Source: a virus
Taxonomy: Duplodnaviria; Heunggongvirae; Uroviricota; Caudoviricetes
Virus record (IMG/VR): IMGVR_UViG_2703718800_000013
Coordinates: 1 to 8,755 of that record
DNA: 8,755 nucleotides
Direction: 5' to 3' (one strand)
The first letter of the stretch is position 1; each line of letters starts with the position of its first letter. The position numbers and the translations under genes are program-made. The notes beneath the pieces are model-generated. The model ran no database searches. It was given only the letters and a program-made list of their open reading frames with translations, and was not told the origin of the DNA. Shown here one piece after another: positions 1 to 8,755 of this stretch.

Positions 1-1
1 C

Positions 2-1024
2 CAGCGCCTGCCCGGTTCGCAGCCGGGCGTGAATGAAACCACCCTGAATGCCATTGCGTATGCACAGGCGGGGCTGTCAGCACAGGAGCATGAACATCTG
101 GCCTGGATCTCCCGGCAGATAATTCCGACAGAAGCTGATGAAGCCGAACTCCTGAAACACTGCGCATTCTGGGGTGTCATCCGTAAACCGGCTTCCCGCG
201 CTGACGGACCGGTACAACTGATGCTGACCACGGATGCAGGGATCACGGAAGGCGTACTCCTTCAGCGAAGCGATGGTGTTGTGTACCGCATCACTGGCTC
301 TGCGACCGGAAAAGCCGGAACACTGAATGTTAATGTGGAGGCGGAAAGTGCGGGGCGCGCCGGAAATACCCCGACCGGAACCCGCCTGTCCTTTATCACA
401 CCACAGGCGGGCATCAACCAGACAGCCACGGTCACCGGCACGGGACTCACCGGTGGTGCGGATGTGGAAACGGTGCCGGAGTTGCTGTCCAGGCTGGTAT
501 TCCGGGTACAGAACCCGCCATCAGGGGGAACACAGTATGATTTTGAACGCTGGGCACGGGAAGTACCTGGCGTGACGCGGGCATGGTGTAAGCCTGAATG
601 GCCTGAGGCTGGTAGTGTTGGTGTGACTTTTGTTCAGGATAATAACCCTGACATTTTCCCCGGGGAAGGTGATGTGAAGCGGGTGGCGGATTATATCCGC
701 AGTCATGATGATCCGGCGACGGGCCAGCCCGTTGGTCAGCCACTTGGGCCGACAATCAGCGTGTTTAAGCTGACCAATAAGCCGGTGGTGTTTGAGATAA
801 GGATTGTACCCAAAACGCCGGAAAATCAGGCTGCCGTAAAACAGGCATTAACGGACCTGCTTTATAACGAATCGCGGCCGGGTGGACTTGTATTGCCTTC
901 ATCATTCTGGCGGGCTGTTGCAGGGGTGAAAGGACTGGAGGATTTTGAAGTTCGCAGCCCGCTGAAGTCCGTGATGGCCGGAGATACAGAGTTGCTGACC
1001 GTGGGGGAAATCACATGGCTGTAA
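2..1024 (+). CDS. Baseplate J-like protein (Mu gp47 / P2 gpJ family), probably 5'-partial
   Basis: Long ORF ending TAA at 1022-1024. The first in-window start is GTG at 29, but the frame stays open back to position 2, so the true start may lie upstream of the window. Family assignment rests mainly on gene order (immediately upstream of a DUF2313-like gene and the tail fibre) plus recalled resemblance; not verified by search. Confidence 0.6.
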   Translation, partial: QRLPGSQPGVNETTLNAIAYAQAGLSAQEHEHLAWISRQIIPTEADEAELLKHCAFWGVIRKPASRADGPVQLMLTTDAGITEGVLLQRSDGVVYRITGSATGKAGTLNVNVEAESAGRAGNTPTGTRLSFITPQAGINQTATVTGTGLTGGADVETVPELLSRLVFRVQNPPSGGTQYDFERWAREVPGVTRAWCKPEWPEAGSVGVTFVQDNNPDIFPGEGDVKRVADYIRSHDDPATGQPVGQPLGPTISVFKLTNKPVVFEIRIVPKTPENQAAVKQALTDLLYNESRPGGLVLPSSFWRAVAGVKGLEDFEVRSPLKSVMAGDTELLTVGEITWL

Positions 1025-1572
1025 CCCTGACCCCGCATCAGCGCGCCCTGTTGCAGTTGCTGCCTGACGGGCTGGTATGGGATAAGCGGCCGTCATCCGT
1101 TCTTGCGGCTTTGTGCCTGGGCCTCAGTCATTCCACGGAGCGTGTTTCCTGGACCGGCAACCAGATGCTGGCAGAACGTTTTCCTGATTCATCCCGTCTG
1201 CTGCTGGAAGACTGGGAGCGTTATCTGGGGTTACCGGAATGTGATATGACCGGCGCAACCATTCAGGAGCGTCAGCGTTATGCCGGGAATAAATACCGGA
1301 TGAAACCCTCTCTTAACCGTGAATTTTATATCCGGTTTGCGGCAGAGTTTGGTTATGAAATAGATATCCAGCCATCACCGGAATCACAATGGATCAGTAT
1401 TGTGACAGTGAAGACAGCGGTTGGATACCGTCACATGAATGTACTGGACGATATTCTTACGCCACTGCGAATTTATGATGCAAGTGCGCTGGAGTGCATT
1501 TTAAACCGTTATAAGCCAGCCTGGCAGACGTTTTTATATCTGTACGAAAACAGTCATGAGGAGACGGAGTGA
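1015..1572 (+). CDS. Phage tail/baseplate protein, Mu gp48 / YmfQ-like (DUF2313 family)
   Basis: 185-aa ORF. Its ATG at 1015 overlaps the upstream stop (ATGGCTGTAA), suggesting translational coupling. Size and position between the baseplate J-like gene and the tail fibre match the Mu-type late operon. Confidence 0.6.
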   Translation: MAVTLTPHQRALLQLLPDGLVWDKRPSSVLAALCLGLSHSTERVSWTGNQMLAERFPDSSRLLLEDWERYLGLPECDMTGATIQERQRYAGNKYRMKPSLNREFYIRFAAEFGYEIDIQPSPESQWISIVTVKTAVGYRHMNVLDDILTPLRIYDASALECILNRYKPAWQTFLYLYENSHEETE

Positions 1573-2468
1573 TGTATTTTGTCGACAACAATTCAGGTGT
1601 GACCGATATGCCACCACTGGCCCCCTCACAGGGCACGCAGGTTAAATGGTTTACTGAAGGTGACGGACGCAAAGGGATCAGCCATATAGGTCAGGACTGG
1701 CTGAACATCGTGCAGGCAGAGCTGCTTGCCATTCTGACAGAAGGACAGGTTCAGCCGGATAAGGCAAAACTGAACCAGCTGGTGATAGCCATTAAGGCAA
1801 TCATTGCAGCAAACGCATACAGCCGGAAAAACAACCTTAAGGAGATTGCGGATGCAGGTGCAGAAGCACAGGCTGCTGCCCGCCGTCATCTTGGGCTTGG
1901 AGGATTATCAGGAAAAGACAGCCTGGCTGCTAATGATGTGGGAGCACTGGAGAAATCCATGAATTTTGGCGATGTACCGGATAAAACCTCGGCCCGCCAG
2001 AATCTGGATGTTTACAGCAAGAGCGAAGGTGATAACCGTTATCTGCGCAAGGATCAGAATGGCGCGGATATCGCGGACAAAGGAACCTTTATCGATAACG
2101 TCGGTTTACGGGAAACGGTAAATAAGGCGGCGAATGCCCTGCCATCGGACGGCACCGCTGCGGCAGCGAATAAACTCGCCACCCCAAGAAATATTAATGG
2201 TGTTCCTTTCGACGGGACGCAGGATATCAGCATTACTTCAGGGATGACGGAATCAACAGCCAATCAGCGTTATGTTACAGGGGTAAGACTGGGAGCGCAG
2301 GCATTAAGCGGCGGACTGGAATATAATTACTCCCTGTCATCAGGAAATGTGATTACCGGTTTTAAGACTGACGGAGACTGGGAAATGCGTAGTGGTGATG
2401 ACCGTGTTTATTACAGACAGATACAATATTGTATTAATGGGAATTGGGTATCCGCTGCAAGTATTTAA
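1569..2468 (+). CDS. Tail fibre protein (Mu S-like), current orientation; constant N-terminal part plus invertible C-terminal part
   Basis: 299-aa ORF. The likely start is ATG at 1572, preceded by GAGGAG at 1558-1563 (GTG at 1569 is the first in-frame start). The N-terminus (MYFVDNNSGVTDMPPL...WFTEGDG) resembles the conserved phage tail-fibre N-terminal domain. Codon GTC 2100-2102 carries the recombination core, and the C-terminal ~72 aa differ from the alternative cassette on the minus strand. Confidence 0.85.
   Translation: MMYFVDNNSGVTDMPPLAPSQGTQVKWFTEGDGRKGISHIGQDWLNIVQAELLAILTEGQVQPDKAKLNQLVIAIKAIIAANAYSRKNNLKEIADAGAEAQAAARRHLGLGGLSGKDSLAANDVGALEKSMNFGDVPDKTSARQNLDVYSKSEGDNRYLRKDQNGADIADKGTFIDNVGLRETVNKAANALPSDGTAAAANKLATPRNINGVPFDGTQDISITSGMTESTANQRYVTGVRLGAQALSGGLEYNYSLSSGNVITGFKTDGDWEMRSGDDRVYYRQIQYCINGNWVSAASI
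2089..2114. promoter_or_regulatory. Left crossover site for the DNA invertase (gix/hix-like 26-bp site)
   Basis: TTATCGATAACG-TC-GGTTTACGGGAA: two imperfect 12-bp half-sites around the core dinucleotide TC (2101-2102). It resembles recalled hix/gix sites, and inverted-repeat identity begins exactly at the core. Confidence 0.7.
2101..2249. repeat. Left arm of a perfect 149-bp inverted repeat flanking the invertible segment
   Basis: The reverse complement of 3379-3527 matches 2101-2249 in every block I compared by hand. The mirror-image ORFs in the track (2054..2263 minus and 3395..3580 plus share a 44-aa identical stretch) are a direct consequence. Confidence 0.95.
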
Positions 2469-2567
2469 TTAACGGCTCATGGCGTACGGCAGGCAGCGCC
2501 TGATATATGTGTTATCTCAGACAATCCCTGTCCGTATATAGCGATAGTATTATTCCTGTTTTTATCA

Positions 2568-3110
2568 TTGATTCACATGGTGATGTTTATGCAACTGATT
2601 AATGTTAAACGATATTACCCGGAAAACACCCTCTATGGTAATGATGTACAGTATTTTCAGAGTGAAGATGGTAAGGATTTCTACGAGTCCCTGCCATTAT
2701 TCACCAAAAAATATAAACTTTGTATAACACCTGACAGCGGCATTATCTGCTCAATATCACAGGACGCTTCGGCGCTGTATCCTGCGGGGTTCTCTGTGGT
2801 TGAAGTCGACGAACTCCCTGAAGGTGCTGATATTTCGGGTAACTGGAAGTTTGATAATGGCGTGATCTCCCGTATTCCGGTTAACTACGCAAGAAAACTG
2901 GAAGCAATGCGCCAGTTATATCTTAATCAGGCATATGAAAAAATTAATGACTGGAGAACAGAATTACAGCTGGGCACCATCAGTGATGAAGACAGAGCCG
3001 CACTTACCCGATGGATGGCATACATCAGTCAGGTGAAAAAAATGGAACCATCCGCCATTAAAACTGAAGCTGAATTTGATGCCATTAAATGGCCCGAACA
3101 GCCTGAATAA
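2568..3110 (+). CDS. Tail fibre assembly protein (Mu U / Tfa family chaperone)
   Basis: 180-aa ORF with several possible starts (TTG 2568; ATG 2577, 2583, 2589). Blocks SEDGKDFYE, DASALYPAGFSVVEV and a C-terminal WPEQPE match the recalled pattern of Mu U/Tfa proteins. Confidence 0.8.
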   Translation: MIHMVMFMQLINVKRYYPENTLYGNDVQYFQSEDGKDFYESLPLFTKKYKLCITPDSGIICSISQDASALYPAGFSVVEVDELPEGADISGNWKFDNGVISRIPVNYARKLEAMRQLYLNQAYEKINDWRTELQLGTISDEDRAALTRWMAYISQVKKMEPSAIKTEAEFDAIKWPEQPE

Positions 3111-3113
3111 CTT

Positions 3114-3143
3114 AAAGGGTGCTTATCGCACCCTTTTTCTTTC
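3114..3143. terminator. Intrinsic terminator between tfa and the minus-strand cassette, possibly bidirectional
   Basis: AAAGGGTGC (3114-3122), loop TTATC, GCACCCTTT (3128-3136), then TTTTTCTTTC on the + strand. It sits 3 bp after the tfa stop and ends just before the minus-strand cassette stop at 3145-3147. Confidence 0.6.
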
Positions 3144-3144
3144 A

Positions 3145-3527
3145 TCAGACAGATGAAACTGTACGCCATGCATTACTGATATATATCTGCACAGGACGGA
3201 AATAAACCCCGCCAATGTTATCGGCAGAGTTTTTTCCTGTTTCCTGCACGTTAATACCGGAAAGCATACAACCGGAAGGCGCACTGTAATTCCATGACAT
3301 TTCATTGCCTCCGGGTGAATGATAGCTCTGTGCTCCAAGCTGAACGTTCTGTACATACCGGTCATCTGCGGTTGACTGCGTCATCCCTGAAGTAATGCTG
3401 ATATCCTGCGTCCCGTCGAAAGGAACACCATTAATATTTCTTGGGGTGGCGAGTTTATTCGCTGCCGCAGCGGTGCCGTCCGATGGCAGGGCATTCGCCG
3501 CCTTATTTACCGTTTCCCGTAAACCGA
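3145..3527 (-). CDS. Alternative tail-fibre C-terminal cassette (Sv'-like), silent in this orientation
   Basis: The minus-strand frame is open from the core at 3526-3527 through the inverted repeat (encoding the same 49 aa as the + copy) into a distinct ~77-aa C-terminus (MTQSTADDRYVQNVQLGAQ...), which parallels the + copy (MTESTANQRYVTGVRLGAQ...). It has no start codon or RBS of its own at its 5' end. Confidence 0.75.
3379..3527. repeat. Right arm of the perfect 149-bp inverted repeat
   Basis: Reverse complement of 2101-2249. Confidence 0.95.
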
Positions 3528-3539
3528 GGTTTCAGGGAT
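3514..3539. promoter_or_regulatory. Right crossover site for the DNA invertase (gix/hix-like)
   Basis: TTCCCGTAAACC-GA-GGTTTCAGGGAT, with core GA (3526-3527) that is the inverse of the left-site core TC. The inner half-site equals the reverse complement of the left site's inner half-site. It lies directly upstream of the invertase gene, as gixR does relative to gin. Confidence 0.7.
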
Positions 3540-3593
3540 GCCGTATATCTGCTTTAAAAGGCCTTTCCACCTCTTTTTAAGGAAGGTAAATAC

Positions 3594-4154
3594 ATGCTGA
3601 TTGGCTATATACGCGTATCAACAAATGACCAGAACACAGGTTTACAAAGAAATGCGCTGGAATGTGCAGGATGTGAGCAGATTTTTGAAGATAAAATGAG
3701 CGGAAAAACAACACAGCGGCCGGGACTGAAGCGGGCACTGAAGAAACTAAAACCCGGTGACACGCTGATGGTCTGGAAACTGGACAGGCTGGGGCGCAGT
3801 ATGCGCCACCTTGTTGCGCTGACAGATGAATTACAGCAACAGGGGATAAATTTTCGTAGTCTTACTGACAGCATTGATACGTCAACCCCCATGGGGCGCT
3901 TCTTTTTTCACATAATGGGTGCGCTGGCAGAAATGGAGCGTGAATTGATTGTCGAACGGACACGGGCTGGTCTTGCAGCTGCCCGTGAAAGGGGACGAAC
4001 CGGCGGCAGACCCCGTCGTCTCACGCAGGAACAATACGAGCAGGTCGGGCGTTTACTGGCCGGGGGTGTCAGCCGAAGACAGGCGGCACTTATTTTTGAT
4101 ATCGGCCTTTCAACCCTTTATCGTTATTTTCCTGCGAGCGTTTCGGAAAAATAA
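3594..4154 (+). CDS. gin: Serine-recombinase DNA invertase (Gin/Pin/Cin/Hin family)
   Basis: 186-aa ORF with RBS AAGGAAGG upstream. The N-terminus MLIGYIRVSTNDQNT carries the catalytic Ser, and a C-terminal helix-turn-helix region is present. The protein is near-collinear with Mu Gin as I recall it, and its position next to the invertible segment fits. Confidence 0.95.
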   Translation: MLIGYIRVSTNDQNTGLQRNALECAGCEQIFEDKMSGKTTQRPGLKRALKKLKPGDTLMVWKLDRLGRSMRHLVALTDELQQQGINFRSLTDSIDTSTPMGRFFFHIMGALAEMERELIVERTRAGLAAARERGRTGGRPRRLTQEQYEQVGRLLAGGVSRRQAALIFDIGLSTLYRYFPASVSEK

Positions 4155-4244
4155 GACGCTCCCTTTGTTGGGCCTTTACTGAATTAACGCAAAATGGCGT
4201 TTATCGGTCTGTGGATATGATAATTCTGTTTATTCAGGAACAGG

Positions 4245-6326
4245 ATGAATATTATGACGTCCAAATGGGTTCAACTATCATCAATGCCCGGAAACTTTAC
4301 CGTTAAAGTTTCCGGTGGTACAGCGGCATTTCTTGAGGCTCCCTTTCCTCCGGCTGAAACGAAAGGAGGTATGACATTTGCTGACTGTCTCATCAGTTTT
4401 AATACACGGGATTGCCTGTGGGTAAGGCCAGTATCCGGTGATCCGAACGTGGAAATTACCGGAGCGGGTATTGGTGCTGTCATTCCGTTAAGTGCTGATG
4501 TTGCCGGTACTACTGAACCGTCAGACTGGAACAATGCGGAAACATACACTTCCTCAGCAGGAGATAAAGTTGCAGGTCAAACTCCGTCCTGGTATTACGT
4601 GGTTGTTATTGCTGGTCAGTCGAATGCATCGTCATTTGGTGAAGGTCTTCCTTTGCCTGATACCTATGATCGACCTGATCCACGTATTAAACAGCTGGCT
4701 CGCCGTAACACGGTTACACCTGGCGGGGTTGAATGCGCCTACAACGATATAATTCCGGCAGATCACTGTCTTCATGATGTGCTGGATATGAGTAACCATA
4801 ATCATCCAAAAGCAGATCTTTCAAAAGGTCAGTATGGTTGTGTCGGCCAGGGTTTGCATATTGCAAAAAAACTCCTGCCCTTTATCCCGGAAGAGGCTGG
4901 TATCCTTCTGGTTCCCTGTGCCAGAGGAGGCTCTGCATTTACCGATGGTGCTGATGGTGAATTTACTGAAGCTTCCGGAGCAACATCTGCATCATCGCGC
5001 TGGGGAGTCAATAAACCTTTGTTCAGCGATCTTGTTAACCGAACAAAAGCGGCTCTCAGCAGTAACCCCAGAAATATTCTCCTGTCCGTTGTCTGGATGC
5101 AGGGCGAGAATGATCTGAAAACAGGAAAACATGCTGAACATTCCGGTCTGTTTGTGACGATGGTCGAAACATTCAGGCGTGAACTTTCGGCTTTTTCTGC
5201 GCAATCTCCAGCCGGAGATATGGCTTCTGTACCGTGGATCTGTGGTGATACGACGTATTACTGGAAAAATACATATCCAGAACAATACAAAGCTGTTTAT
5301 GGCAAATATGCTAATGAAGCAAAGAACATTCACTTTGTTCCATTTGTTGTGGATGAAAATGGAAAAAATGTACCGACAAATAATCCAGATGAAGACCCGG
5401 ATATTCCAGGTATTGGCTATTATGGTGCCATAAGTCGCGATTCGACTAACTGGACATCAAACGACAGGGCAAGCCATTTCAGTTCATGGGCGCGCCGTGG
5501 AATTATTTCAGACCGTCTGGCAACAGCGATTCTGACATTGTCAGGACAAAAATCTGCTTTCTTCCGCGGTGTAACGGCAACAGAACATTCTGATACCGGT
5601 AAGAGTGAGCCTGAACCCACCGGGGATGTGAAGGACGTGAGCGATCAGATGAAGATCATCGTTTCGTATACTGCAAACGCCCCGACAGAACCAATGAAAG
5701 ATCAGGGGTGGAATGCGGCTTCCGGAAAAGCAACCTTTGTCACGGATGCTGCTGCAACAGGTGGTAACAAAGCGTTAAGGGTGAATAAAGCGCCTAACAG
5801 CATGGCCTCATGGAAAATGTATCATCCGATCACAGCTGATAATGCCAGGGATTTGTTCGCCAGAGGTGGTGATATTTCCCTCCGTTTCAAAATTCCATCG
5901 GATGCGGGCATTGCGGAAAACCGGTATGGTGTTGGTATTTACTGGGCTGTAAGTAACTGGCCTGACGGTGACGGAAAAAATAACCTCATCGCATCATGTT
6001 TCCTGCAAACGGATTCAGCTAACCTGAATGTGATGTATCACAAAGGGAGCGGAAGTCAACAGATAGGATCGTATGGTGTCTTTGATCATGAATGGCATAC
6101 GCTCTCGTTACGGTTTGCAGGTGGTAATAGCATGAGTGTTACCCCAGTTCTGGACGGGAAAGATGGTGAACCATTTGAACTTGTGAAGTGGGTGAATGCC
6201 GGGTTCACGGTGGATCAACTGACACTGACCGATATTACCGGCAATGCAGCCACTTACCCGATGTTGTTTGACACAATTAAAGTGCAGGTTAACGATGCGG
6301 TCTCTTCGTCTAATGTGAATAAATGA
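4245..6326 (+). CDS. SASA/SGNH-family carbohydrate esterase (sialate O-acetylesterase-like; NanS-p-like) with an N-terminal extension and a C-terminal lectin-like domain
   Basis: 693-aa ORF. The GQSN nucleophile motif is encoded at nt 4614-4625, a QGEND block at about 5099-5113, and a downstream D-x3-H (SNDRASHF) follows, the three signature blocks of SASA-type esterases. The ~250-aa C-terminal region looks like a beta-sandwich carbohydrate-binding domain (inference). An alternative start is ATG at 4254. Confidence 0.75.
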   Translation: MNIMTSKWVQLSSMPGNFTVKVSGGTAAFLEAPFPPAETKGGMTFADCLISFNTRDCLWVRPVSGDPNVEITGAGIGAVIPLSADVAGTTEPSDWNNAETYTSSAGDKVAGQTPSWYYVVVIAGQSNASSFGEGLPLPDTYDRPDPRIKQLARRNTVTPGGVECAYNDIIPADHCLHDVLDMSNHNHPKADLSKGQYGCVGQGLHIAKKLLPFIPEEAGILLVPCARGGSAFTDGADGEFTEASGATSASSRWGVNKPLFSDLVNRTKAALSSNPRNILLSVVWMQGENDLKTGKHAEHSGLFVTMVETFRRELSAFSAQSPAGDMASVPWICGDTTYYWKNTYPEQYKAVYGKYANEAKNIHFVPFVVDENGKNVPTNNPDEDPDIPGIGYYGAISRDSTNWTSNDRASHFSSWARRGIISDRLATAILTLSGQKSAFFRGVTATEHSDTGKSEPEPTGDVKDVSDQMKIIVSYTANAPTEPMKDQGWNAASGKATFVTDAAATGGNKALRVNKAPNSMASWKMYHPITADNARDLFARGGDISLRFKIPSDAGIAENRYGVGIYWAVSNWPDGDGKNNLIASCFLQTDSANLNVMYHKGSGSQQIGSYGVFDHEWHTLSLRFAGGNSMSVTPVLDGKDGEPFELVKWVNAGFTVDQLTLTDITGNAATYPMLFDTIKVQVNDAVSSSNVNK

Positions 6327-6355
6327 CGGGTAATTCATTTTATTTAAAATGGTGA

Positions 6356-6541
6356 GTGATTATGCCAATACTACATACATTTATGCTTTATTTTTGCACG
6401 TGTGTGTGTCTGCTTTATCTCCTCAGCGGAGGTTACAAAATTATCCGAAATTATTTTCGAAATAAAATTGATGCAGCCGCAGAGGAAAAGATAAAAAGCG
6501 GTGCTGTAATGCCGCAGCCGAAAGACTCCGGTCAGATTTAA
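6356..6541 (+). CDS. Hypothetical small protein with a hydrophobic N-terminus (questionable)
   Basis: 61-aa ORF in an A+T-rich intergenic-looking stretch with a weak RBS. The hydrophobic N-terminal 25 aa might be a membrane helix, but this could equally be a non-coding leader or promoter region. Confidence 0.25.
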   Translation: MIMPILHTFMLYFCTCVCLLYLLSGGYKIIRNYFRNKIDAAAEEKIKSGAVMPQPKDSGQI

Positions 6542-6576
6542 TTTTTTGTGAACCAGAAAAGGAAAGGAGAATATTC

Positions 6577-6822
6577 ATGCCAGAGATTAAAGGCACGGTT
6601 ACTGAAGAGCTTGTCAAACAGGCACTTTATTCTGAAGAAGTGAACCGCGTGCTGAAGGCGCAGGTTCGCAAGGATTTTGAGGCACAAATCGACGCATATG
6701 TTGATGAAGTGCTGGCCCGAATGGTTGGCCATTCTCCGGCTGAAAACAGCACGGAGAATGAGCCTCAGCCCGTAGAGCAACCAGAGCCGGTTCAGCCCGG
6801 AACTGACAGTGCCATGATGTAA
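6577..6822 (+). CDS. Hypothetical small acidic protein
   Basis: 81-aa ORF with a strong RBS (AAAGGAAAGGAGA, 7 nt before the ATG). It has a helical-looking N-terminal half and a Pro/Glu-rich tail. I do not recognise a family. Confidence 0.55.
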   Translation: MPEIKGTVTEELVKQALYSEEVNRVLKAQVRKDFEAQIDAYVDEVLARMVGHSPAENSTENEPQPVEQPEPVQPGTDSAMM

Positions 6823-6896
6823 CAATACAAACCGACAGCTTCTCCTGTCGGTTTGATTTTCATGGGCGATGTATATACCAGTCAGAGGAAATAATC

Positions 6897-7097
6897 ATGG
6901 ACAAGAACAAAAAGCAGCCCGATACCAAAGGTCTGGAAATATTAAGCGCAGAAATTATCAATGCGCTACGTTCAGGACTTGATGAAAATACATTACAGGA
7001 TCGAAACTTCACCACTGCAATGTGGATAGCGATGCAGATCCTGTGTACCCCAAGATGCGCTATTTTTGCGGTTCGTGAGGGTCAGTTGACTCGCTGA
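6897..7097 (+). CDS. Hypothetical small protein
   Basis: 66-aa ORF with RBS GAGGAA 7 nt upstream. No family recognised. Confidence 0.5.
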   Translation: MDKNKKQPDTKGLEILSAEIINALRSGLDENTLQDRNFTTAMWIAMQILCTPRCAIFAVREGQLTR

Positions 7098-7266
7098 TTG
7101 CCCGAATTACATCAGAAAAGCACGCGTTCCATAATTGCATAGCTGATGAATCACCAGCTGTATGAAAAGAGGTAAAGACACAACTGGTGGATGTCATTGC
7201 TGCAATTGTGATATCAGCTGCAATTCGCGCAGCCTGTAACTTTTGGTCGGTGGTCAGTTTATCCAT
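7060..7266 (-). CDS. Hypothetical small protein, convergent with and overlapping the 3' end of the 6897..7097 ORF
   Basis: The ORF track gives 7060..7290; an internal ATG at 7266 has a much better RBS (AGGAGAAA). Codon usage looks plausible, but no family is recognised and a + strand terminator downstream implies antisense read-through. Confidence 0.35.
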   Translation of the reverse strand: MDKLTTDQKLQAARIAADITIAAMTSTSCVFTSFHTAGDSSAMQLWNACFSDVIRAISESTDPHEPQK

Positions 7267-7380
7267 TTTCTCCTGCCTGAACAGATGCATCTCTGCTTTA
7301 CAGGAGGCCGGGGAATATCATAGGATACACCACGAGCTCAGAGTGAAGCATTGATGCAGTTTTTTACAGATTGACCCAGA

Positions 7381-7417
7381 ACCCAGCATAGTTCCAGCTA
7401 TGCTGGGTTTCCCTTTT
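7381..7417 (+). terminator. Rho-independent terminator (+ strand)
   Basis: Perfect 11-bp stem ACCCAGCATAG (7381-7391) / CTATGCTGGGT (7398-7408) with loop TTCCAG, followed by TTCCCTTTTAT. Confidence 0.55.
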
Positions 7418-7640
7418 ATGTAGTATCCTGTTGATTTGAAACATACTACATATACGCGCGATCCTACCTTCACTGGATAAAAAGGCAATAAAATGATCAT
7501 TTTATGATCGTTTTCACCACCTAACTCTTCGTTTTCTTTAAGTAAATAATCACCGCCCTGAATCATTGTTGATGACTTTTCAATCTATTTGTTGTATCAA
7601 TTAAACAAATCGAATCGATCGTTTTTGTCGATCGATTGCA
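7418..7640. promoter_or_regulatory. Candidate com-mom regulatory region with palindromes and clustered GATC sites
   Basis: A 9-bp inverted repeat ATGTAGTAT (7418-7426) / ATACTACAT (7443-7451). Five GATC sites at 7460, 7495, 7506, 7617 and 7630. A second palindrome AATCGATCG (7612-7620) / CGATCGATT (7628-7636) embeds two of them. A weak possible promoter is ATGACT (7573-7578), 16 bp, TATCAA (7595-7600). Confidence 0.4.
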
Positions 7641-7680
7641 TGAGAAAGGCATCAACAACAAAGCAGGAGGTTATGCGGCC

Positions 7681-7881
7681 ATGTATCGAAACATACGGTG
7701 CCGACACTGCAATAAGCTACTGGCACGGGCCAGTTTCAGTTATCTGGAAGTAAAATGTCCGCGCTGTAAAACCCTCAATCAAATCACATCTCCGAGCGCC
7801 ACAGAGCACCCCACATACACAAGGAAATCCTGTCGTGGGGAACAGAAAGCAAGTCACATCCCGTATCATCAGCACGCCTGA
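7681..7881 (+). CDS. com: Com, zinc-finger translational activator of mom
   Basis: 66-aa product [14 protein letters not shown]...KCPRCK with CxxC-x15-CxxC spacing like Mu Com. AGGAGG at 7665-7670 precedes the ATG at 7681; the track start at 7636 lacks an RBS. The 3' end overlaps the mom start. Confidence 0.8.
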
Positions 7882-8572
7882 ACTTATTCGCTATAACGAC
7901 AATATCGTTGGTTATGGCTCCCGTGAGTTGCGGGTTGAGACAATAAGTTGCTGGCTGGCCAGACTGGTCATCGTCAATAAACATTACAGCCACCGTTTCG
8001 TAAATAACTCCTACCTTCATCTGGGCATATTTTCAGAACGGGAACTTGTTGGCGTAATGCAATGGGGTTACGCCCTTAACCCAAACAGTGGTGCACGCGT
8101 CGTAACGGGTACGCAGAACCGAGAATATATGGAGCTTAACCGGCTATGGCTGCATGACTGTATGCCGAGAAACTCCGAATCAAGGGCAATCAGTTACGCG
8201 CTCAAGCTAATCAGGCAGCTTTATCCGCAGGTACAGTGGGTTCAGTCGTTTGCAGATGAGCGTTGTGGCTGTCTTGGTGTCGTGTATCAGGCAAGCAATT
8301 TTGATTATGTAGGCAGCCATGAAACAATATTCTATGAACTTGATGGCGAGTGGTATCACGAGATTTGCAGGAATGCCATTAAACGAGGCGGACAACGAGG
8401 TGAACATCTGAGGGCTAATATCGACAGAGCCAGTGTGCATAAGTTCCGACAGTTTCGTTACATCCGGTTTCTGAACAAGAGGGCCAGAAAACGCCTCAAC
8501 ACAAAGCTATTCAAAGTCCAGCCTTACCCAAAACCACAAACAGTTAAAACTGGTTTGAAAGAGAGTGAATGA
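7835..8572 (+). CDS. mom: Mom, DNA modification (adenine carbamoylmethylation) anti-restriction protein
   Basis: 245-aa ORF starting at GTG 7835, inside the 3' end of com in another frame; this is the com-mom arrangement of Mu. Its size and its position at the phage right end fit. The exact start codon is uncertain. Confidence 0.8.
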
Positions 8573-8602
8573 GCGCTTAAAAACTCATTCTAAAACTCAA
8601 AA

Positions 8603-8649
8603 GAAAAGCGCCGATTTAGTATCAAATAAGTTGCGTATCGGCGTTTTTC
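8603..8649. repeat. 13-bp imperfect inverted repeat downstream of mom (terminator-like or protein-binding)
   Basis: GAAAAGCGCCGAT (8603-8615) pairs with ATCGGCGTTTTTC (8637-8649) with one G-U equivalent, across a 21-nt spacer. It may be the mom terminator or paired end-binding sites. Confidence 0.3.
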
Positions 8650-8755
8650 ATCGGAATCAAATGAAATGCAAATCGGTATCAAAAAAATCGCCGCGCTATA
8701 TGATGCTTTGTTCCGTAGGGCAACATTACCCCGGTTTTGAAACGGATATTCACGG

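Follow-up and report, generated by a model that had tools for sequence, protein, structure and literature searches.

A probable NanS-p-type sialate O-acetylesterase module between gin and com at the right end of a Mu-like prophage

Genes and features between gin and com

The window analyzed here is the whole 8,755-nucleotide (nt) stretch of IMG/VR virus record IMGVR_UViG_2703718800_000013 (positions 1 to 8,755), which contains the right end of a Mu-like transposable prophage. The lineage to which it belongs matches the Sp18-type Mu-like prophage found in O157 and other E. coli that produce Shiga toxin (STEC). Between the gene for the gin-type invertase and the com and mom genes lies a block of additional DNA, the main gene of which encodes a sialate O-acetylesterase of the NanS-p type, a family studied experimentally in Shiga toxin (Stx) prophages. 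The distance from the gin stop codon (4154) to the com start codon (7681) is 3,526 bp (interval 4155-7680). In Mu, this distance is only 94 bp, with nothing but the mom promoter region inside, and in the Mu prophage of E. coli SE11 it is 82 bp. The original prediction, which was made from the DNA letters alone, had described some 3.5 kb of accessory cargo inserted here relative to Mu, and both the distance and the insertion are borne out. The features of the block and its flanks are as follows (aa, amino acids; ORF, open reading frame; dG, free energy).

3594-4154, plus strand: gin-type serine invertase, the left flank of the cargo (Resolvase E 2.8e-51, HTH_7 E 8e-14; 'recombinase family protein' in the RefSeq annotation of the relative L001)
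4155-4244, plus strand: 90-bp spacer between gin and the esterase gene, with no terminator-like site predicted and 97-100% nucleotide identity in the three Mu-like loci aligned
4245-6326, plus strand: NanS-p-type sialate O-acetylesterase, 693 aa (Pfam SASA and DUF6645; phrog_143 E 1e-260; alternative ATG start at 4254)
4245-4540, plus strand: all-beta domain of ~85 aa and the start of a Ser/Thr/Pro/Ala-rich linker, phrog_4772-like, standing in for DUF1737
4581-5540, plus strand: SGNH/SASA catalytic domain, residues ~113-431 (NanS 3PT5 over residues 113-431, E 7.7e-114; Pfam SASA E 3.9e-12)
5658-6293, plus strand: C-terminal lectin-like jelly-roll domain, DUF6645 (6YP6 over residues 472-683, E 2.6e-51; PF20350 E 1.5e-32)
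6362-6541, plus strand: small DUF1378 protein, 59 aa, with one N-terminal hydrophobic helix (PF07125 E 2.2e-23, 82.6 bits against a cut-off of 25; phrog_494)
6577-6822, plus strand: small acidic DUF826 protein, 81 aa (PF05696 E 2.9e-15, 56.6 bits against a cut-off of 25; phrog_311)
6823-7282, no strand: sub-slot for alternative cassettes, here with orf66 (6897-7097, plus strand) and orf76 (7060-7290, minus strand), a convergent pair that overlaps by 38 bp
6828-6855, no strand: bidirectional hairpin/terminator directly 3' of the DUF826 gene, with an 11-bp stem and a T-rich tail (dG -17 kcal/mol on the plus and -18.6 kcal/mol on the minus strand; z -4.0 and -4.4)
7318-7566, minus strand: lineage-specific ORF of 82 aa (ORF82), divergent from com (phrog_26524 positions 1-55 of 135, E 7.7e-31)
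7379-7410, plus strand: strong conserved hairpin with a 14-bp stem (dG -22.5 kcal/mol, z -6.0) and the tail UUUCCCUUUU
7610-7637, no strand: GATC cluster, aligning with the gin-com spacers of Mu and SE11 just upstream of com; right edge of the insertion relative to Mu
7681-8572, plus strand: com (7681-7881) and mom (7835-8572), the right flank (Pfam Zn_ribbon_Com and Mom; RefSeq coordinates transferred from L001)

The 693-aa esterase seen in the original prediction is a real gene, and its exact sequence is already on record in 319 contigs, under the name 'sialate O-acetylesterase / DUF6645 domain-containing protein'. All four SGNH blocks are kept (GQSN124, GGS228, QGEND286, and RASH408), and they match the blocks described for this family, i.e., GQSN, GGS, QGExD, and R(A/S)SH (PMC10462455). 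The catalytic domain could be aligned over 319 residues with chromosomal NanS (YjhS, 3PT5). The 337-residue chain of the latter corresponds to roughly the catalytic domain only, however, while the window protein carries ~110 extra residues at the N-terminus and ~260 at the carboxyl-terminus. In the carboxyl-terminal domain, Y561, Y566, F586, and F654 provide an aromatic residue at all four sugar-binding positions proposed for vb_24B_21. In EDL933 and O104:H4, NanS-p enzymes act as esterases on Neu5,9Ac2, and both de-O-acetylation of mucin glycans and support of growth on Neu5,9Ac2 have been reported for them (reviewed in PMC8065619); activity of the window esterase on Neu5,9Ac2 or O-acetylated mucin glycans is predicted from these homologs. 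A single-sequence AlphaFold prediction of the full 693-aa protein had a mean predicted local distance difference test (pLDDT) score of 35 and yielded no usable model.

The window shares several features with NanS-p of lambdoid phages (933W L0105/z1466; phi24B vb_24B_21, also known as gp84): the SGNH/SASA blocks, the carboxyl-terminal jelly-roll domain, the DUF1378 and DUF826 genes downstream, and an N-terminal sequence without a visible signal peptide. In the Stx phage TL-2011c, the genes are ordered Q, stxAB, SASA esterase, DUF1378, DUF826, holin, lysozyme; the three-gene block of the window thus repeats the arrangement of the late-region block of lambdoid phages. In line with this, the DUF826 and DUF1378 genes have been described as lying between nanS-p and S (PMC10462455). 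Amino acid identities to TL-2011c are 55% for DUF1378, 47% for DUF826, and only ~56% for the esterase, over residues 114-683. The three genes cover 2.6 kb of the 3.5-kb block. Here, however, the host element is a Mu-type transposable myovirus rather than a lambdoid phage, and the genes are located between gin and com rather than in a late region of the lambdoid type, with Q/stx upstream and the holin gene downstream.

The two companion genes were assigned by Pfam, through the kind of profile search that the original prediction had suggested for the small proteins. Its description of the small ORFs held up in part: Shine-Dalgarno-like sequences are present at three of them (6362-6541, 6577-6822, and 6897-7097), but the statement that they belong to no recognizable family fails for DUF1378 and DUF826. 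An NCBIfam search of the proteins of the block gave nothing meaningful.

The N-terminal domain and the mosaic conservation of the esterase

The N-terminal part of the window esterase differs from that of its lambdoid counterparts. It is 15.5% identical to the N-terminus of the TL-2011c protein, and some 340 homologs from lambdoid phages align only from residue ~110-114 of the window esterase onward. By itself, the domain is a weak match to phrog_4772, a family profile of 79 positions (E 0.0028, profile positions 8-77). The corresponding domain of L014, an IMG/VR Mu-like contig, scored E 2.5e-4, and stand-alone proteins from Salmonella scored 9e-15 to 9e-19. Conversely, a profile built from the window domain and related N-terminal domains retrieved these stand-alone Salmonella proteins of 77-80 aa at E 1e-6 to 1e-23. 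When 1.84 billion representative proteins were searched exhaustively with HMMER, five matches to the domain were returned, four of which were short fragments, two of these running into the start of SASA; the fifth, a weak repeat match, came from an unrelated protein of 979 aa. A profile scan of genome contigs with the alignment of the domain picked up only the start of SASA, in E. albertii.

AlphaFold (AF2) gave a confident all-beta model of the domain from a 25-sequence alignment, with pLDDT values of about 90 for residues 10-70. Fold searches with this model returned only generic matches to small cupin and jelly-roll folds, and as such, the fold gives no functional assignment. The domain is not always fused to the esterase: in L015, it is encoded as a separate 78-aa ORF, 16 bp ahead of the gene for a 703-aa esterase. 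A distant Mu-like lineage carries the same fusion with an N-terminal domain that is only 35% identical, indicating an old and maintained association. The SSP linker motifs that have been proposed as sites of proteolytic processing in phi24B gp84 occur in several other Mu-like alleles, e.g., as ASSSPSWYY, but neither linker of the window protein (~4540-4580 and ~5540-5655) contains them.

We determined the distribution of these sequences among 5,426 complete E. coli genomes, to which all genome counts given here refer. The region from the 3' end of gin to the first ~100 codons of the esterase gene (4100-4560) was found with at least 95% identity in 205 genomes, roughly 4%, and among the matches listed, this junction was annotated as a recombinase and a DUF6645 protein. 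A matching com-mom right end was present in about 226 genomes. The same series of genes was seen in every relative inspected, at unrelated insertion sites. Together with the junction in 205 genomes, this indicates that the block is fixed in the Sp18-like lineage, and that its content does not vary within it. The original prediction of a variable slot therefore needs to be qualified, as it applies to the differences among Mu-like lineages and to the two alternative cassettes at 6823-7282 (see below), but not to the block as a whole within its own lineage.

The esterase gene itself shows a mosaic pattern of conservation. Compared with the other Mu-like alleles, the window protein is 98-99% identical in the N-terminal domain, 67-70% in the catalytic domain, and 35-47% in the carboxyl-terminal domain. 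In nucleotide comparisons with three relatives, identity stays at 97-100% from gin to about 4450. The drop sets in at about 4540, values of 40-60% are reached between about 4900 and 6350, and identity is back at 88-100% from about 6400 in two of the relatives and from about 6550 in the third. One Sp18-like allele (L006) resembles that of the lambdoid phage TL-2011c (82% in the catalytic and 78% in the carboxyl-terminal domain) more closely than it does the other Mu-like alleles. It therefore appears that the enzyme and lectin heads are exchanged or diversify rapidly, also between phage types, while the N-terminal domain stays with the Mu-like backbone. Sequences similar to nanS-p occur in 1,997 of the genomes, with a median of 3 such places in a genome and a maximum of 19, and recombination between prophages can thus draw on a large pool.

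What lies downstream of gin differs from one Mu-like lineage to another, and there is no such cargo in Mu and SE11. In four Mu-like prophages of Salmonella (L029-L032, 8001-9179), the genes after that for the invertase encode a phrog_4772 protein of 79 aa, an ILEI-domain protein of 183 aa, and a DUF1353 protein; other Mu-like prophages of Salmonella have an esterase and DUF1353 instead. The ILEI domain (PF15711) is best known from eukaryotic proteins. The DUF1353 gene lies 74 bp before a transposon-like end, a Mu-type end (...GCATTTATCGCGCGGCGCATCA) that is followed by differing host DNA. In both the window and Salmonella, the coding sequence after the invertase gene begins with a phrog_4772-like unit and continues with a second cargo protein, near the right end of the prophage. 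In Salmonella, however, the phrog_4772 unit is free-standing, its partner is the ILEI-domain protein rather than an esterase, and DUF1378, DUF826, com, and mom are absent, while the baseplate proteins are too diverged for detection by tblastn. L014, the gp47 of which is 77% identical, encodes a fiber, a chaperone, a 784-aa esterase, a DUF1353 protein, com, and a cytosine methyltransferase. The DUF1353 gene also follows the esterase gene in L014, L016, and L017.

Composition, small ORFs, and surroundings of the block

Compared with the right end of Mu (gin, Pmom, com, mom, attR), the window keeps gin, com, mom, and the GATC cluster, with their order and orientation unchanged, but 3.44 kb of extra DNA lies between the gin stop codon and the GATC cluster, and the mom promoter region and com are not found within ~100 bp of gin. 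As the GATC cluster is conserved, the DNA that is extra relative to Mu extends from the gin stop codon to about 7597. The stretch from the cluster to com is shorter than in Mu, and could not be aligned with Mu at that position. A 23-nt imperfect inverted repeat (78%; 7557-7579 and 7645-7667) flanks the cluster, between the divergent minus-strand ORF and com. A scan of the cargo for direct and inverted repeats detected nothing but short pairs at chance level.

The cargo has a GC content of 45.2%, against 50.3% for positions 29-4154, 52.7% for the baseplate and fiber genes, and 47.4% for com-mom; at third codon positions, the esterase gene has a GC content of 39.6%, and the flanking genes have 43-56%. 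The original prediction, that the cargo is more A+T-rich than the tail genes, is correct to this extent. The shift is modest, however, and the block is not distinct from the neighboring invertible (G) segment, the rest of which has a GC content of 44.7%; the cargo is no more A+T-rich than this neighbor.

Downstream of DUF826, the sub-slot at 6823-7282 holds the convergent, overlapping pair orf66 and orf76, which had been recognized in the original prediction. Neither has a Pfam, NCBIfam, or PADLOC family. This cassette was found in 17 genomes, while most relatives carry a cassette of ~220 bp with its own hairpin and a small minus-strand ORF; in L004, L006, and L009, this ~220-bp cassette, unrelated to that of the window, occupies the sub-slot. 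All relatives can be aligned again from 7283 onward.

The region contains two stable hairpins with T-rich tails, of which that at 7379-7410 is probably the orphan terminator of the original prediction. In L006 and L009, its pairing is kept despite changes in sequence, and in L001 and L005, a 72-bp tandem duplication (at ~7381 of the window) has a repeat unit that includes it. This hairpin may be a regulatory or small-RNA element, although Rfam covariance models gave no match at E up to 1 over 4000-7900. ORF82, which overlaps it, is conserved only over its first 55 codons, and the hairpin lies at the point where conservation stops. In RefSeq, ORF82 is a frameshifted pseudogene; its homologs of 56-137 aa are all hypothetical proteins, all from E. 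coli, and restricted to this lineage.

Upstream of the cargo, the window contains baseplate genes (gp47- and gp48-like, 29-1572) and a tail-fiber gene. An invertible fiber/chaperone segment is delimited by 179-nt inverted repeats (2097-2275 and 3353-3531), which are 95% complementary and have 1,077 nt between them, making the segment far smaller than the 3-kb G segment of Mu. The fiber genes in this segment of the relatives are fragments in the RefSeq annotation. Position 8700 is the end of the prophage, which is inserted in the host lysine decarboxylase gene ldcC; the remaining 55 bases of the window (8701-8755) belong to this gene. Near-identical copies are present in E. coli STEC2018-607 (inserted in bcsA), CP55_Sichuan, STEC1587, and JNEC-KY203. 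Relatives were found in bcsA, csiR, tssM, comEC, yfcU, and a tail gene of a lambdoid prophage; together with the window ending in ldcC, these scattered sites are consistent with (active) transposition. Sp18 has been reported to be intact, with its DNA packaged (PMC2669165).

In some relatives, a gene for a DNA cytosine methyltransferase of ~350 aa replaces mom after com (L009, 7082-8288; L033, 5461-6667; L014, 13628-14837), so that the slot under control of com seems to hold alternative DNA-modification enzymes.

Origin and possible roles of the module

Based on these sequence comparisons, we consider it likely that the block is an accessory module of the NanS-p type, now a fixed part of the Sp18-like Mu-type lineage, between gin and the mom regulatory region. 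The esterase is a protein of three parts: a lineage-specific beta domain, an SGNH enzyme that would remove O-acetyl groups from sialic acids (e.g., Neu5,9Ac2) on mucin glycans, and a lectin-like domain that would target the glycan. As it has no signal peptide, the enzyme would act after phage lysis or from the virion. De-acetylation would probably enable the lysogen population to use host sialic acids, and the phage itself may benefit as well. DUF826 and the small membrane protein DUF1378 may have arrived with the esterase as a unit from the lambdoid late-region block, or may share ancestry with it. Expression of NanS-p is induced along with late genes (PMC8065619). In the window, the lack of a predicted terminator between gin and the esterase gene and the strong hairpin after DUF826 suggest a single transcription unit from gin to 6855. 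The hairpins at 6828-6855 and 7379-7410 may shield the tightly regulated mom operon from read-through.

A number of observations weigh against this assignment. DUF1737 (PF08410), the domain that defines the described NanS-p proteins, had no match in the esterase at E 0.1. The window allele is only 56-62% identical to any other allele compared, and its variable segment (4560-6400) was found in only 4 genomes, with the next best match 67-69% identical. Moreover, phage 434 and the Salmonella loci lack DUF1378 and DUF826, which are thus not always linked to the esterase, making any joint function tentative; a tblastn search of phages with DUF826 was too insensitive to count its co-occurrence with the esterase. 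Finally, sigma-70 promoter-like matches were at chance level (7 found, 8.4 expected), so that we can only infer the transcription unit. Mu C-protein-type dyads (TTAT-N6-ATAA) were found 7 times, with 4.4 expected, and none was located upstream of the esterase gene or com.

A tentative alternative is that the esterase is a component of the virion, in which the phrog_4772-like N-terminal domain anchors an exchangeable esterase-lectin head to the capsid, baseplate, or fiber of the Mu-type particle. Rather than mainly feeding the lysogen, the anchored enzyme would have mucus or the surface glycans of bacteria as its target in the life cycle of the phage itself. There is a precedent in phi24B gp84, a NanS-p homolog that is reported to be processed and to decorate the capsid, with its N-terminal DUF1737 binding the central hexons (bioRxiv 10.64898/2026.04.10.717836). 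In the window protein, DUF1737 is swapped exactly at the domain boundary, where the lambdoid alignments start. The N-terminal domain tracks the phage type, and a conserved N-terminus combined with variable distal parts is the pattern of fibers attached to virions, although recombination breakpoints set by the conserved gin flank could produce the same pattern. In four other myovirus-type contexts (L014-L017), the esterase gene directly follows genes for a tail fiber, a chaperone, or an invertase. The domain also exists as a separate gene, downstream of gin in Salmonella and before the esterase gene in L015, and its fusion here to a product encoded separately elsewhere suggests that the two products interact. 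On the other hand, Mu forms complete particles without such a protein, and the window allele lacks the SSP motifs of the gp84 processing sites. A role of the N-terminal domain as a virion anchor, the myovirus counterpart of DUF1737, is accordingly no better than a possibility that we regard as doubtful.

The original prediction considered the block the best candidate for an undescribed system, in a place where defense and anti-defense genes tend to sit. Such genes are indeed typical of prophage ends and of the neighborhood of mom, which has an anti-restriction function, and orf66, orf76, and ORF82 have no assigned family, while the sub-slot holds alternative cassettes. However, a search of PADLOC-DB 2.0 matched none of the six proteins to any family at E up to 0.1, and a defense system was rejected on this basis. 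The bulk of the block is made up of the genes for the esterase, DUF1378, and DUF826, a set that is likewise found in the late regions of lambdoid phages and the order of which is copied here, and the main gene belongs to an experimentally studied family. The unassigned ORFs encode only 66-82 aa, and one of them is scored as a frameshifted remnant. We therefore consider a defense or anti-defense system very unlikely. It is more improbable still that the block is a passive hitch-hiker, copied recently from a resident lambdoid prophage and without an adapted role in the Mu-like phage. Donors would be plentiful, given the number of genomes with nanS-p homologs, and the L006 allele is 78-82% identical to a lambdoid allele over its catalytic and carboxyl-terminal parts. 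A recent copy was nevertheless rejected, as searches at the nucleotide level showed neither the DUF1378-DUF826 region nor the esterase allele of the window to be similar to any lambdoid phage. Furthermore, the gin junction and the special N-terminal domain are conserved in 205 genomes, and the distant Mu-like lineage carries the same fusion.

The enzyme family is known from experimental work, and the proteins of the block are in public databases under automatic names (sialate O-acetylesterase, DUF6645, DUF1378, DUF826). In the searchable literature, no paper was found that combines 'Mu-like' with 'NanS-p', and none that mentions DUF6645. Rather than an undescribed system, what is new is the presence of a known enzyme head and its companions in another type of phage, with a different N-terminal module and a hypervariable head. 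An unrelated type of phage, a transposable myovirus of the Mu-like kind, has adopted the same head in combination with an N-terminal module that is strictly conserved and different from that of the lambdoid proteins.

As such, the locus offers a direct test of whether the N-terminal domains are virion anchors specific to the type of phage. A more speculative extension, which we think improbable at present but worth stating, is that the slot downstream of gin is a display slot, in which a small phrog_4772-like beta domain, specific to the type of phage, would dock interchangeable heads on the Mu-type virion: an esterase and lectin here, and an ILEI-domain protein in Salmonella. If so, the extreme turnover of head alleles would reflect selection on the host or mucus glycan that is engaged by the particle, and DUF1378 and DUF826 would be accessory to the display module and not to lysis, given that they accompany the esterase although the window has no holin or other lysis gene. 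With this locus, further copies are also added to the nanS-p alleles counted in each STEC genome, and its hypervariable enzyme and lectin segment, situated between near-identical flanks, constitutes a natural experiment on substrate diversification.

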